DNA of 13,869 bases from a virus (lineage: Duplodnaviria > Heunggongvirae > Uroviricota > Caudoviricetes): IMG/VR virus record IMGVR_UViG_2606217100_000003; one strand, written 5' to 3'. Position numbers and translations under genes: made by a program. The notes below the pieces were generated by a model. That model saw only the letters and a list, made by a program, of their open reading frames with translations. It was not told the DNA's origin and did no database searches. Of the stretch, positions 2,980 through 13,869 are shown in pieces. The first letter of the stretch is position 1; each line of letters starts with the position of its first letter.

Positions 2980-3200
2980 TGTTCATTCCACGGCCAAAAA
3001 CAGAGAAAGGAAACGACAGAGGCCCAAAAGCTCGTTTTCAGCACCTGTCGTTTCCTTTCTTTTCAGGGGGTATTTTAAATAAAAACATTAAGTTACGACG
3101 AAGAAGAACGGAAATGCCTTAAACCGGAAAATTTTCATAAATAGCGAAAACCCGCGAGGTCGCCGCCCCGTAACCTGTCGGATCGCCGGAAAGGACCCGC
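2980..3200. other. cos packaging site (cosB-cosN-cosQ), lambda type
   Basis: The reverse complement of 2980-3168 reads like the first ~190 bp of the lambda genome (GGGCGGCGACCTCGCGGGTTTTCGCTATTTATGAAAATTTTCCGGTTTAAGGC...). The 12-nt cohesive-end sequence is at 3157-3168 (plus strand aggtcgccgccc). The adjacent cgtaacctgtcggatcgccgga matches the lambda right end (cosQ side). Confidence 0.8.
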
Positions 3201-6309: not shown

Positions 6310-7392
6310 ATGAAAAAATTAACAGTGGCAATTTCTGCTGTAGCTGCATCAGTACTGATGGCGATGTCTGCTCAGGCAGCTGAAATTTATAATAAAGACA
6401 GTAACAAGCTGGATCTGTACGGGAAAGTTAATGCTAAGCACTACTTCTCCTCTAATGATGCAGATGATGGTGATACTACTTATGCCCGTCTTGGCTTCAA
6501 AGGTGAAACCCAAATCAACGATCAACTGACTGGTTTCGGTCAGTGGGAATATGAATTCAAAGGCAACCGCGCTGAATCTCAAGGTTCCTCCAAAGATAAA
6601 ACCCGTCTTGCCTTCGCTGGCCTGAAATTCGGTGACTACGGCTCCATCGATTATGGCCGTAACTACGGTGTAGCATACGATATTGGTGCATGGACCGACG
6701 TTCTGCCAGAATTCGGTGGCGATACCTGGACCCAAACAGATGTATTCATGACTGGTCGCACCACAGGTGTTGCAACTTATCGTAACAACGACTTCTTTGG
6801 TCTGGTTGATGGCCTGAACTTTGCAGCTCAGTATCAGGGCAAAAATGACCGAAAAGAAGTAACTGAAGCTAATGGCGATGGTTTCGGTTTCTCAACTACT
6901 TATGAGTATGAAGGATTCGGCGTGGGTGCAACCTATGCTAAATCTGATCGCACTAATAATCAGGTTATCTACGGTAACAACGGTCTGAATGCTTCTGGTC
7001 AAAATGCTGAAGTATGGGCAGCTGGTCTGAAATATGATGCGAACAACATCTATCTGGCCACCACCTATTCTGAAACCCAGAACATGACTGTTTTTGGTAA
7101 TAACCATATTGCCAACAAAGCACAAAACTTCGAAGCTGTTGCACAATATCAGTTCGACTTCGGCCTGCGTCCATCCGTTGCTTACCTGCATTCTAAAGGA
7201 AAAGACTTGGGTGTTTGGGGTGATCAGGACCTGGTTGAATATGTTGATGTAGGTGCAACCTATTACTTCAACAAAAATATGTCCACTTTTGTTGACTACA
7301 AAATCAACCTGATTGATAAGAGCGATTTCACGAAAGCATCTGGCGTTGCTACCGATGATATCGTTGCTGTAGGTATGGTTTACCAGTTCTAA
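6310..7392 (+). CDS. nmpC: Outer-membrane general porin, OmpC family (prophage NmpC/Lc-type), apparently intact
   Basis: 360-aa ORF with signal peptide [23 protein letters not shown], then [17 protein letters not shown]... and a C-terminal ...VGMVYQF ending in the terminal Phe typical of porins. It resembles OmpC throughout and is not interrupted by an insertion sequence. Confidence 0.9.
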
Positions 7393-10092: not shown

Positions 10093-10129
10093 GCAGATCT
10101 GTCACGACAGTGAAAGGAACAACGCCACA

Positions 10130-10747
10130 TTAAAAAAGCGATAAGCTTTGCCCCGAATTCATCGGTAGTGGAGAGAAAGTAACATCACGTATTTGCTCCC
10201 CGAGCAGAAGAAACCTATCCAAGGGTAGCGGCGGTATCGTAGCAAACCCTGAAAGCCCCTTCTTTCTTGCAACATCTCTCGCATCCATAAGGATACGACC
10301 TAACACGTTCATACCATAAAAGTTACCTTCGGAGTCTTTACTAGCCCCCCAAAATTGGTCCTTCTCTGAGTGCTCAACAATGTCATGCTCTCCTGTGCTA
10401 TCCAGGAGCGCGAAAAACGATTCCCAGTTCTGGCAAAGCTTAACGCAGACACACCATTTCATTACCGAAACTCGATTTTTTTCCCAACCTGCACGGGTTT
10501 TAGCTTCGAAAGATCTGGCGGTTTGTTTAGCTTCATAAGGGTTGCCTTGGGTAATAATAGCCTTTTGGATATCTGGATAGTCTGGATATCGGCATGCTTG
10601 GTAAAGAATTTCACTCGATTGAATGGGTATACCATTAACTAAGAGCGGATATCCTTTGGCCATGTTGGAAAGACCACCCCATTTCTCGGTGGTTTTCCTG
10701 AAAGAAACTGTGTTGTGAAACAGGTATAGTCTATAGCTCATGATCAC
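10130..10747 (-). CDS. NADAR-domain protein (YbiA-like, DUF1768; predicted ADP-ribosyl/N-glycoside hydrolase)
   Basis: About 203-205 aa (GTG at 10747 or ATG at 10741 with SD ggtga). Three segments match E. coli YbiA as I recall it. GGLSNMAKGYPLLVNGIPIQSSEILYQACRY matches GDFSNFAAWPIKVDGKTWPTSEHYFQAQKF. WEKNRVSVMKW matches WESVKEQVMRK. IVEHSEKDQFWGA...NVLGRILMDAR matches LVEHTENDAYWGD...NRLGYLLMELR. Confidence 0.75.
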   Translation of the reverse strand: MIMSYRLYLFHNTVSFRKTTEKWGGLSNMAKGYPLLVNGIPIQSSEILYQACRYPDYPDIQKAIITQGNPYEAKQTARSFEAKTRAGWEKNRVSVMKWCVCVKLCQNWESFFALLDSTGEHDIVEHSEKDQFWGASKDSEGNFYGMNVLGRILMDARDVARKKGLSGFATIPPLPLDRFLLLGEQIRDVTFSPLPMNSGQSLSLF

Positions 10748-11763
10748 CGATTATACACATTACGCTTCATAAGTGGATACCAACAATCCAGAGCTCTATT
10801 TCCCGTTCGAAGATAAGTTCCCCACCAGTACGCTAGAGGGGTATTATTGGGGCAGTTTCTGAAAGTAAAGATAGTTCCACCAAACCCAACACCATTGAAA
10901 GTTGAAAAGCCTAAAGGCTTTATAGCATCAGAAGGATTTTGACTCTGACCAAGGATATCAAACCCAACTTTTGTCATAATTGCTTCAAAACGATCTCGTC
11001 TCTGCTCATTAGGGAAAAAATTATTCGCGACGTAACCGTCACGATATGTTCCTAAATAATGTACTTGACCGTCAGCCCATTCAGGTATTGATACACTTTG
11101 CGCTTTTGGCCAAAAAACCTCAGAACTCGAACTGTTTCGGCGTTGATTTTCAACAACTGCAAACTCACCACCATCAACGCAAACTGAAATATTCCTATCA
11201 GCAAATTTTCGTTCAAGTTGTTTTTTTATATTCCATGCTGAATACGTGTGCCCGCCTAAAAAGTACACCAATATTGTAATATTTTGGAGTTCAAAGTGCT
11301 CAATAAACCAAGTTAAATCATTGATTGCCTTAGCTCCTGAGAATGAAACATCGTCAAGGTAAATAAATTCACGGAATGAACTAACTCTTTGACGTTGTGA
11401 CAGTCTGGTCACAACGTTGAATTCTTCTACACAATCTTCGCGAAGCAAATCCAAAAACTCAGATTGACTGGTGCCTTGGTTCTGGATATCGAGAAACGCT
11501 GCGGTTTGAAAGAACCTTTCATTTTGCTCATCATTGGCGATACTACTAATAACTCTGCGATAGTCGCTCTCAGAGAAGTATCCAATCCCCATTAATCGGT
11601 CCGTTTCCTCTAAGACAAATCGCCTATCGGTTAACTCAAATTGATTAATCCATCGATTAACATGATCAATGCTCATGCCACCTTGAGGAGGGTTTCGATA
11701 GTCATTTAATTTAGTAGCAATTTGCCCCATAAGATCACGATCTGTAACATTGCTATAACACAT
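10744..11763 (-). CDS. Uncharacterised 339-aa protein with weak phosphoribosyltransferase-like motif; first gene of the NADAR operon
   Basis: ATG at 11763 with SD agga; its stop TGA (10746-10744) overlaps or abuts the NADAR start. The central FIYLDDVSFSGAKA loosely fits the type-I PRTase PRPP-binding signature (hydrophobic x4, DD, small residues, G). No other family was recognised. The gene is low in GC. Confidence 0.7.
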   Translation of the reverse strand: MCYSNVTDRDLMGQIATKLNDYRNPPQGGMSIDHVNRWINQFELTDRRFVLEETDRLMGIGYFSESDYRRVISSIANDEQNERFFQTAAFLDIQNQGTSQSEFLDLLREDCVEEFNVVTRLSQRQRVSSFREFIYLDDVSFSGAKAINDLTWFIEHFELQNITILVYFLGGHTYSAWNIKKQLERKFADRNISVCVDGGEFAVVENQRRNSSSSEVFWPKAQSVSIPEWADGQVHYLGTYRDGYVANNFFPNEQRRDRFEAIMTKVGFDILGQSQNPSDAIKPLGFSTFNGVGFGGTIFTFRNCPNNTPLAYWWGTYLRTGNRALDCWYPLMKRNVYNR

Positions 11764-11966
11764 ATAGATTCCTGTTCATGCATTGATACGAAAGGGTCAG
11801 AATACTCTTAAAAAAATTTGGTGAAAGCCTGAAAAGTCATAATGTTAACATGTATCACAAATTGTTATTTTTCTCAGTATCTGAGACGTAAACTGAATCC
11901 AAGACCACTAATCTGGCTCAAAAAATTTAGAAAGTTTCTCATAATGAATACTTGCCTCTTTGCCCG

Positions 11967-12602
11967 TCATACACTTGCTCCTTTCAGCCCAAACTTAGCT
12001 TTGATTTCTGCGATCTTCGCCAGAGCCTGTGCACGATTTAGAGGTCTACCGCCCATAACAGGAAGTTGTTTTACTGGTTCAGGTATCGTCTCACCACGGT
12101 TAATTCGCGCTGTCATACAGGTCAGTTCATCGGCAGCCTTGCGCCGTAATTCCGCATCAGTAAGCGCATTGGCCCGCATGTTCTGGTACAGGTTGGTAAC
12201 CAGCCAGTAGTGCGCGTTTGATTTCCATGGATAAGACTCTGCGTCCGGATACAGGCCACGCTTCCGGCAATACTCGTAAACCATATCAACCAGCTCGCTG
12301 GCGTTTGGCAGCCCGGCGGTAACGGATGCTTCTTCCCGGCACCAGGCAACAAACTGCCCGGGTGATGGCAGGAATGGTCGATTCTGCCGACGGGCTACGC
12401 GCATTCCTGCGTTAACCTGTTCCATTGTGGTGATCCCGTTTTCCCGGAAAGCCAGAACCCACTGGCGGCGGATTTCGTTCAGTTCGTTCTGATCCCGGTT
12501 AGCCAGGCTCGCAGGGAAAGTTGCCAGTAACTGGCTGAACACACCGTTGATGATCTGCGCTACCTGCTGTACAGGCAACACGTAAAGATCCAACCAAGCC
12601 AA
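11967..12602 (-). CDS. Replication protein P homologue with replaced N-terminus (P')
   Basis: 211-aa ORF; from VQQVAQIINGVFSQLLATFPASLANRDQNE... to the C-terminal ...AKFGLKGASV it matches lambda P as I recall it. The first ~11 residues (MAWLDLYVLPV) are unrelated. TTG start at 12602 is preceded by SD aaggag. Confidence 0.8.
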   Translation of the reverse strand: MAWLDLYVLPVQQVAQIINGVFSQLLATFPASLANRDQNELNEIRRQWVLAFRENGITTMEQVNAGMRVARRQNRPFLPSPGQFVAWCREEASVTAGLPNASELVDMVYEYCRKRGLYPDAESYPWKSNAHYWLVTNLYQNMRANALTDAELRRKAADELTCMTARINRGETIPEPVKQLPVMGGRPLNRAQALAKIAEIKAKFGLKGASV

Positions 12603-12705
12603 AATCTCCTTACCTCACAACACGGCAAGCCTGCATTGCGGCGCTTCAGTCTCCGCTGCATACTGTCCAGGTGAGCGCGGGTGATGGCATAACAGAGGAA
12701 AGAAA

Positions 12706-13869
12706 ATGTCACTCTTCCGCAGAAATGAAATATGGTATGCCTCGTATTCGCTCCCGGGCGGGAAACGAATTAAGGAATCTCTTGGCACAAAGGACAAGCG
12801 GCAAGCTCAGGAGTTGCACGACAAGCGAAAAGCAGAACTCTGGCGAGTAGAAAAGCTAGGGGATTTACCTGATGTCACTTTTGAAGAGGCCTGCCTAAGA
12901 TGGCTTGAGGAAAAAGCTGATAAAAAATCTCTCGATTCAGATAAAAGCCGGATTGAGTTCTGGCTTGAACATTTTGAGGGTATAAGGCTTAAAGATATCT
13001 CGGAGGCAAAGATTTACTCTGCTGTAAGCAGAATGCATAACAGAAAGACGAAAGAAATATGGAAACAGAAAGTTCAGGCCGCCATCAGGAAAGGTAAAGA
13101 ACTGCCTGTTTATGAACCAAAGCCAGTATCAACTCAGACAAAGGCAAAGCATCTTGCCATGATAAAGGCCATTCTCCGTGCTGCAGAACGCGACTGGAAG
13201 TGGCTGGAAAAAGCGCCTGTCATCAAGATACCAGCGGTCAGAAACAAGCGAGTCAGATGGCTGGAAAAGGAGGAAGCAAAACGCCTTATTGATGAGTGCC
13301 CCGAACCACTGAAATCTGTCGTCAAGTTTGCGCTGGCAACTGGTCTGAGAAAGTCGAACATCATAAATCTGGAATGGCAACAAATCGACATGCAGCGACG
13401 AGTTGCCTGGGTGAATCCAGAAGAGAGCAAATCAAACCGCGCCATTGGTGTGGCGCTGAACGATACCGCCTGTAAAGTGTTGCGTGATCAAATAGGCAAG
13501 CATCACAAATGGGTGTTTGTACATACCAAGGCGGCTAAGCGAGCAGATGGAACATCAACGCCTGCGGTCAGGAAGATGCGCATCGACAGCAAGACATCAT
13601 GGCTATCAGCTTGTCGTCGTGCAGGAATTGAAGATTTCCGTTTCCATGACCTCAGACACACCTGGGCAAGCTGGCTGATTCAGTCAGGCGTCCCATTATC
13701 AGTGCTTCAGGAAATGGGCGGATGGGAGTCCATAGAAATGGTTCGTAGGTATGCTCACCTTGCGCCTAATCATTTGACAGAGCATGCGAGGAAAATAGAC
13801 GACATTTTTGGTGATAATGTCCCAAATATGTCCCACTCTGGAATTATGGAGGATATAAAGAAGGCGTAA
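12706..13869 (+). CDS. intD: Prophage tyrosine integrase
   Basis: 387-aa ORF with SD gaggaaag. Tyrosine-recombinase motifs are present: TGLRKSN (box I Arg), HDLRHTWAS (His-x-x-Arg) and VRRYAHL (catalytic Tyr). It matches my memory of DLP12 IntD; argU and the att site should lie just beyond the window end. Confidence 0.9.

Follow-up and report, generated by a model that had tools for sequence, protein, structure and literature searches.

A probably neutral deletion scar joins 5'-truncated xis and P genes in a DLP12-type prophage at argU of Escherichia coli

The window, which is the whole stretch of 13,869 nucleotides that was analyzed, spans appY to intD and is 100% identical to the same span of E. 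coli SW071614 in an annotated RefSeq record. In a megablast search of complete E. coli genomes with positions 11700-13869, SW071614 gave a 100% identical match, partial matches were found in 4,485 of the 5,426 genomes, and the genes under the match were annotated as intD and replication protein P. The gene order in the identical RefSeq record (nohD, essD-rrrD-rzpD, a porin gene, quuD, ylcG, rusA, ybcO, ninE, and ybcN) is that of DLP12, described as the most prevalent cryptic prophage of E. coli, whose integration site is argU (PMC6379469). The argU gene (tRNA-Arg) lies 16 bp past the intD stop codon, just outside the end of the window, and is followed by fimZ and the sfm genes, as in K-12. The record carries no annotated head, tail, cI, cro, N, or O gene, which marks the prophage as defective, and between appY and intD none of O, cI, cro, N, exo, bet, and gam is annotated. 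The argU site with its adjoining intD, the gene order, and the defectiveness all agree with DLP12; judged by these annotations, the window is a DLP12-type cryptic lambdoid prophage integrated at argU. The intD gene is at least 99% identical across 7 strains. Elsewhere in the window, the porin gene (the nmpC locus, annotated as "porin OmpC") at 6310-7392 on the plus strand is an intact 360-codon open reading frame, and pseudogene fragments of tail-fiber assembly and terminase large-subunit genes at 1296-2459 on the minus strand adjoin appY in the RefSeq annotation, as expected for DLP12. The features relevant to the region upstream of intD are as follows.

10130-11763, minus strand: genes for a PRTase-CE protein (339 aa; PF24390, E = 6e-39) and a NADAR protein (205 aa; PF08719, E = 6e-23), assigned by Pfam.
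11942-11970, minus strand: ren stub (ren'), whose start overlaps the P stop codon (ATGA) and which is homologous to ren for about 9 codons, up to a second rearrangement junction (homology start at query position 243 of 11700-13869).
11967-12602, minus strand: truncated P open reading frame (P'), 211 aa with a TTG start (open reading frame and Pfam Phage_lambda_P, E = 6e-62).
11967-12572, minus strand: P-derived part of P', codons 33-233 plus the stop codon, comprising domains II, III, and IV (phmmer, Pfam PF06992, and PGAP).
12570-12572, no strand assigned: deletion junction, a 3-bp TAC microhomology of P (codon 32/33) and xis (codon 31/32), from BLAST coverage and alignments.
12572-12850, plus strand: 5'-truncated xis remnant (xis'), codons 32-123 plus the stop codon, overlapping the intD start (comparison with the xis gene of STN0717-20).
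12573-12602, minus strand: ten-codon N-terminal extension of P' (LAWLDLYVLP) from the TTG, not derived from P and antisense to xis codons 32-42 (alignments).
12606-12611, minus strand: AAGGAG, a Shine-Dalgarno (SD)-like hexamer read in the sequence, 3 nt before the TTG at 12602 and 12 nt before a TTG at 12593.
12706-13869, plus strand: intD, intact, encoding the DLP12 tyrosine integrase of 387 aa (Pfam Phage_integrase, E = 5e-47; RefSeq name intD).

In a BLAST search with positions 12400-12900, P-type matches covered query positions 1-173 and int-type matches covered positions 170/171-501, so that the two meet at window positions 12570-12572. Alignment with KFu019, a more complete relative, resolved the same point at the nucleotide level: the P side of KFu019 reads ...CTGCTGTAC|CTGCGG, its int-upstream region reads ...GCCGCCTAC|AGGCAAC, and the window reads ...CTGCTGTAC|AGGCAAC across the junction. 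There is no flanking similarity around the TAC microhomology, and in this respect the junction is typical of illegitimate recombination. The coordinates that PGAP gives for the P pseudogene (window 11967-12572) agree exactly with the breakpoint, and true P homology begins 133 bp from the int ATG. Both parental copies of the TAC are present in STN0717-20, at L009 8471-8473 and L011 3427-3429 (locus pieces of NZ_AP022482.1 3397953-3422000), and relative to this genome 8,303 bp are deleted between codon 32 of xis and codon 32 of P. Of the 5,426 complete genomes, only 7 have exactly this junction. An earlier, sequence-only reading of this DNA had placed int about 100 bp from the start of a P homologue and had presumed a deletion scar somewhere in 12565-12705. 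The gap from the P' TTG to the int ATG is 103 bp, Pfam confirmed the identity of both genes, the 8,303 bp missing relative to STN0717-20 bear out the scar, and BLAST and the alignments narrow the interval to the 3 nt of the microhomology. The same reading held that xis, the recombination genes, the immunity region, and O were all absent, which is correct for the last three but not for xis, of which codons 32-123 remain.

The xis open reading frame of STN0717-20 (from L011 3336) has 123 codons and encodes an HTH_17 domain at residues 6-36 (E = 1e-8). This domain is lost from the window, where the 92-aa remnant gave no match in a Pfam search, and the K-12 homologue of the stretch is annotated as the pseudogene xisD (b4633). 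In intD-type prophages, xis (L011 3336-3707) is a continuous 123-codon frame overlapping intD by 145 nt; the PGAP annotation covers just the first 22 of these codons and calls them an "incomplete" HTH pseudogene, which may be an annotation artifact rather than a defect.

More complete relatives of this prophage are available for comparison. Positions 10100-12560, which include P', the ren stub, and the PRTase-CE and NADAR genes, are 99.9 to 100% identical in 41 other genomes. STN0717-20 carries its element at the same argU locus, where the accessions of FimZ, SfmF, FimH, SfmD, and FimC are those of SW071614, and its P-ren'-PRTase-NADAR arm matches that of the window at 99.9%. The left arm of this element is nearly complete, with intD, xis, DUF4222, TraR/DksA-like, DUF1382, and DUF1317 genes, exo, bet, gam, and kil, followed by genes for a HipA-family kinase with DUF3037, a cI-like repressor, cro-like and ydaT-like genes, O, and full-length P. 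The pair formed by the HipA-family kinase and DUF3037 sits between the cI-like repressor and kil in this genome. Separately, we noted that the DLP12-like prophage at argU is far more complete in about 40 E. coli genomes, where it includes O, P, the red genes, and an immunity region. Compared with STN0717-20, illegitimate recombination at the 3-bp TAC microhomology has deleted the 8.3 kb that separate codon 32 of xis from codon 32 of P. Lost with this segment are exo-bet-gam-kil and the remainder of the left arm, the immunity region, and O and, with O, the replication origin, whose position (and hence loss) in the window prophage we infer from lambda, where the origin lies inside O. What is left is two 5'-truncated, apparently promoterless genes lying back to back, xis' on the plus strand and P' on the minus strand.

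The junction is found with two different P alleles. In SCZE5-type genomes, the identical junction is joined to the "consensus" DLP12 P allele, in which 17 codons differ from alignment column 156 on, and the window P' carries the PRTase-type allele. The window allele is itself a mosaic, with the first ~59 to 60 nt after the junction (12513-12572) as in other DLP12 P' sequences and about 20 substitutions thereafter, many of them shared with lambda, which indicates recombination among lambdoid P genes. We weighed whether the deletion happened once or twice. On balance, the sequences favor a single deletion, after which either homologous recombination in the 60 identical bp (12513-12572) or gene conversion by a different lambdoid prophage joined the junction to the second allele; this is the simplest account because two separate deletions would be unlikely to share both ends at a microhomology of 3 bp. 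We regard it as unlikely that the xis'::P' junction arose independently in the window lineage, directly from a complete PRTase-type prophage, with P codon 32/33 acting as a deletion hotspot. Such a second origin would explain why the window flank and the whole arm from P' to ybcN match strains with the complete prophage, why the six other carriers have a different P allele (17 differing codons), and why the P-side ends of bet'::P', exo'::P', and xis'::P' junctions lie within 2 nt of each other. However, both endpoints are nucleotide identical in the two backgrounds, and with a microhomology of just 3 bp, it is very unlikely that both would recur exactly; the data are accounted for by gene conversion or by a crossover within the 60 bp over which P' is identical, and the P-PRTase arm also occurs in a lambda-att prophage, in D217-5. 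We rejected D217-5 as a candidate parent, since the prophage that carries the P-PRTase arm in this genome occupies the lambda att site and has lambda-type int and xis. We also considered intD polymorphisms as a means of telling deletion in situ from import, and set them aside since int is too conserved: the window is 1 nt from SCZE5 and 4 nt from STN0717-20. The SCZE5 IntD protein is also carried by two other complete prophages.

The two additional junctions on the P side were read in other genomes. The bet'::P' junction of E200086 reads ...CTGCTGTA|ACGATG (locus L015 3640-3645). The junction of LD27-1, which joins exo at about codon 9 to P', reads ...CTGCTGTACC|GGGATC (locus L007, about 3125-3135) and has a GTACC microhomology inside an imperfect CCTGC..GTACC repeat; the lambda exo sequence agrees with the STN0717-20 locus (L011). 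Together with xis'::P', the three partner junctions fall within 2 nt at P codon 32/33 (...CTGCTGTA/C/C), and the PGAP P' is 606 nt in all three. On the P sense strand, the endpoint contains an imperfect 9-bp tandem, GCAGGTACA/GCAGGTAGC. Other DLP12 endpoints differ, lying in O in KFu019, at the O start in NCCP12480, and at about P codon 131 in K-12. The common P-side endpoint could reflect nested deletions that reused a junction-proximal repeat, a local hotspot, or coincidence. In a search with the O-P boundary for a count of codon-33 truncations across genomes, the signal was hidden by other prophages of the same genomes that have a full-length P.

We next considered which parts of P are kept. 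The PF06992 model matched P' over all of its length (positions 1-162 of 162; E = 6.3e-62), which places P' in the family. In a phmmer comparison with the lambda P chains 8v9t and 6bbm, residues 11-211 of P' aligned with residues 33-233 of P, with 196 of 201 residues identical (97.5%) and the substitutions V63L, V123A, V183T, H184C, and A194T. P' therefore retains residues 33-233 of 233, or 86% of the protein; 96 nt of 5' coding sequence is gone, and the leading 10 residues, which precede the start of the alignment at P residue 33, are unrelated to P. The PGAP annotation is consistent with this, describing "replication protein P, incomplete, missing N-terminus" (L001 14268-14873, equivalent to window 11967-12572). 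We used the domain definitions of a 2025 cryo-EM and crystal study, in which P consists of an N-terminal lasso (domain I, residues 1-29, or 1-40 as a rigid body), domain II (~30-119), domain III (~120-192), and a C-terminal lasso (domain IV, 193-233) (PMC12661323). In the B6P5 structure at 2.66 Å, the ordered part of four of the five P chains begins at about residue 37-40, and these chains still grip DnaB; a single P chain shows domain I, which binds the docking helix of DnaB where the DnaB spiral is breached (PMC12661323). DnaB contacts in four of the five P protomers involve domains III/IV, the C-terminal lasso, and domain II, and the C-terminal lasso has been proposed to be the first part to bind (PMC12661323). 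By this alignment, P' is P minus domain I, with the main DnaB-contacting regions kept, and the retention of domains II to IV suggests that the protein, if made, would bind DnaB. The sequence-only reading had taken the kept part for the DnaB-binding C-terminal portion; the DnaB-contacting domains are indeed kept, but the retained portion is residues 33-233 and not the C-terminal part alone. We also looked for the disruption of the C-terminal domain that would speak against that reading and found the domain intact, with 5 amino acid changes relative to lambda P over 201 residues. As a functional loader, P' falls short in having no domain I, no upstream O gene, which in lambda holds the origin iterons, and no pR transcription context.

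To initiate translation, P' would depend on sequence that lies beyond the junction. The minus-strand sequence upstream of the open reading frame is tgTGAggtAAGGAGattTTG, and it contains, in order, an in-frame TGA (5 codons upstream), AAGGAG, a 3-nt spacer, and TTG. The predicted duplex of AAGGAG with the 3' end of 16S rRNA has an energy of -9.2 kcal/mol, and the hexamer is present in the window at chance frequency (6 occurrences versus 6.2 expected). The spacings of 3 nt and 12 nt are both outside the usual optimum for initiation in E. coli. In alignments, positions 12573-12611, which cover the ten leading codons and AAGGAG, are identical in KFu019, NCCP12480, STN0717-20, and SCZE5. The hexamer is the antisense of the xis codons TCT CCT TAC, and the stretch is also present in prophages with a whole xis and no abutting P'. 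By this comparison, the start signals of P' are accidental, being pre-existing antisense xis sequence. It had been proposed that P' retains a start codon and SD sequence; a TTG and an AAGGAG are both present, but the status of a retained signal and the meaning attached to it find no support, given the antisense origin in xis codons 32-42, the 3-nt spacer, and the result of the promoter search.

In that search, a consensus scan of 11700-13869 found no sigma-70-like promoter on either strand, and three terminator-like hairpins in the same interval were at chance level. A position weight matrix scan upstream of P' returned weak sites, the best scoring 6.9 bits versus 10 to 14 bits for the best sites in the window. 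The best site, TTGCCG-17-GAGATT at 12804-12776, lies inside int in antisense orientation, and in the second, TTGCCG-16-GATTTT at 12628-12601, the -10 element overlaps the start codon. Transcripts might still enter P' by read-through from argU or from transcription antisense to int. Within the region scanned, nothing appears to argue for P' expression, and a literature search on the expression of peaD/ybcD returned nothing relevant.

The open reading frame of P' is nevertheless intact, and we asked what this implies. A single nucleotide in 606 (TGT versus TAT) separates P' from full-length P in STN0717-20. The intact frame is thus explained by an allele that hardly differs from the one in sibling prophages that are still complete; a divergence of 1 nt implies a recent event, so an intact frame is no evidence of selection, and purifying selection is not needed to explain it. 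Compared with lambda P, P' has 26 synonymous and 5 nonsynonymous differences. We rejected dN/dS as a test of selection on P', since the differences between P alleles predate the deletion and the 1 nt acquired since then gives no power either way; the mostly synonymous differences reflect constraint in functional phage ancestors. Related alleles have decayed further. In the six other carriers of the junction (SCZE5 type), P' is cut after residue 207 and fused towards ninE, with the loss of residues 208-233, most of domain IV, and in K-12 the P remnant is 312 nt (peaD), next to exo and xis fragments. P' would be on the same decay path as these shorter remnants. Truncated by a rearrangement and with decay continuing in related alleles, P' has the features of a pseudogene; it is already annotated as such in RefSeq (PGAP) and is a feature of an already known kind.

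On these data, a neutral deletion scar in a DLP12-type prophage is the highly probable reading of the feature, and P' is most likely not expressed at a meaningful level. We consider it very unlikely that P' is made at a low level and is functional, either as a dominant-negative decoy that hampers the replication of superinfecting lambdoid phages or as a factor that modulates or poisons host replication. A loader without the N-terminal lasso, and probably without O binding, would on this account still bind DnaB through domains II to IV, as the 97.5% identity of residues 33-233 to lambda P would allow and as do the four of five P chains in B6P5 that are ordered only from about residue 37-40 (PMC12661323). 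P levels below those of induction already cure ColE1 plasmids (PMC3640518), and P' has an intact 211-codon frame with an SD-like hexamer (-9.2 kcal/mol). Against this, the scans gave no credible promoter, the SD spacer measures 3 nt, and the start signals were already present in intact xis sequence. P-delta-76 (Hayes laboratory), in which codon 9 is fused in frame to codon 86, is replication-defective and shows no complementation, P-lethality, or ColE1 curing (PMC3640518; PMC4926192), and this loss of lethality and plasmid curing indicates that the N-terminal region matters for the known toxic phenotypes. In addition, the C-terminal lasso is gone from the sister genomes that share the junction, the allele is a rare one, carried by 7 of 5,426 genomes, and a PADLOC scan of P' gave no match. 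The more specific proposal, in which the accidental SD/TTG gives low-level translation of P'(33-233) and the product serves as a DnaB-binding decoy against helicase recruitment by superinfecting lambdoid phages, is more improbable still; if it were true, P' would be a domesticated exclusion factor derived from a broken replication gene. An assembly or sequencing artifact, for which we found no support, is effectively refuted by the presence of the same junction in 7 complete genomes that were sequenced independently and come from different hosts and countries.

As a neutral scar, the locus would be a textbook case of a lambdoid prophage "grounded" by a microhomology deletion of its immunity and replication functions, and it would mostly be of little import. 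With a complete sibling as parent and further-decayed descendants available, it offers a clean decay series resolved to the nucleotide. It also places a nearly whole DnaB-binding loader fragment in a natural genome, from which harm or interference with phage replication would be expected if it were expressed.

On the other side of P', the ren stub and everything downstream of it are identical in the 41 other PRTase-CE/NADAR genomes. The PRTase-CE/NADAR module replaces the ren-emrE-ybcK-ybcL-ybcM block of K-12 DLP12, with its junction to ren' at about 11942. It is 99.9 to 100% identical in 42 genomes and is also present in the lambda-att prophage of D217-5. PADLOC returned weak matches to the module (PRTase_III-A, 5e-10; PDC-M42C, 4e-8), and the pair is named "anti-phage proteins" in one RefSeq record. 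From these matches and its phage setting, the module is probably a phage-borne defense moron.

Finally, we compared the locus with known systems. Domains II, III, and IV of lambda P (PDB 6BBM, 8V9T, and 8V9S) are complete in P' as well, whereas domain I, the O partner, the pR-driven operon, and the gene's own translation start, all of which lambda P has, are missing from P'. P-delta-76 resembles P' in being an N-terminally damaged P with an intact C-terminal part, and the N-terminal portion of P has been suggested to bind O (PMC4926192). The two differ in extent: P-delta-76 loses the 9-86 region, and P' loses residues 1-32 only and keeps 33-86. Since P' removes less than P-delta-76, its activity is not deducible from that of the mutant.

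Among the closest relatives are complete argU prophages such as those of STN0717-20, WP5-W18-ESBL-11, and CFS3313, which share with the window the same intD, xis region, P allele (1 nt different), ren' stub, and PRTase-CE/NADAR module, along with ybcN-ninE-ybcO-rusA-quuD, the porin and lysis genes, and the chromosomal flank. Unlike the window, they keep the 8.3 kb running from the xis 5' end through O and P codons 1-32. DLP12 of K-12 MG1655 has the same arrangement and is annotated as "cryptic prophage DLP12"; it shares the argU site, intD (at least 99% identical), the gene order through the nin region, rusA, quuD, the porin and lysis genes, nohD, and appY, and it likewise has a 5'-truncated P pseudogene close to int and a missing immunity region. 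The K-12 locus is intD-xisD'-exoD'-peaD'-renD' (b0537, b4633, b0539, b4508, and b0542). K-12 thus keeps xis and exo fragments and a 312-nt peaD, whereas in the window a 606-nt P' lies directly against xis', and the int-side breakpoint of K-12 corresponds to window position 12611, compared with 12572 in the window prophage. Downstream of P, K-12 carries ren::IS3-emrE-ybcK-ybcL-ybcM where the window prophage carries the PRTase-CE/NADAR module.
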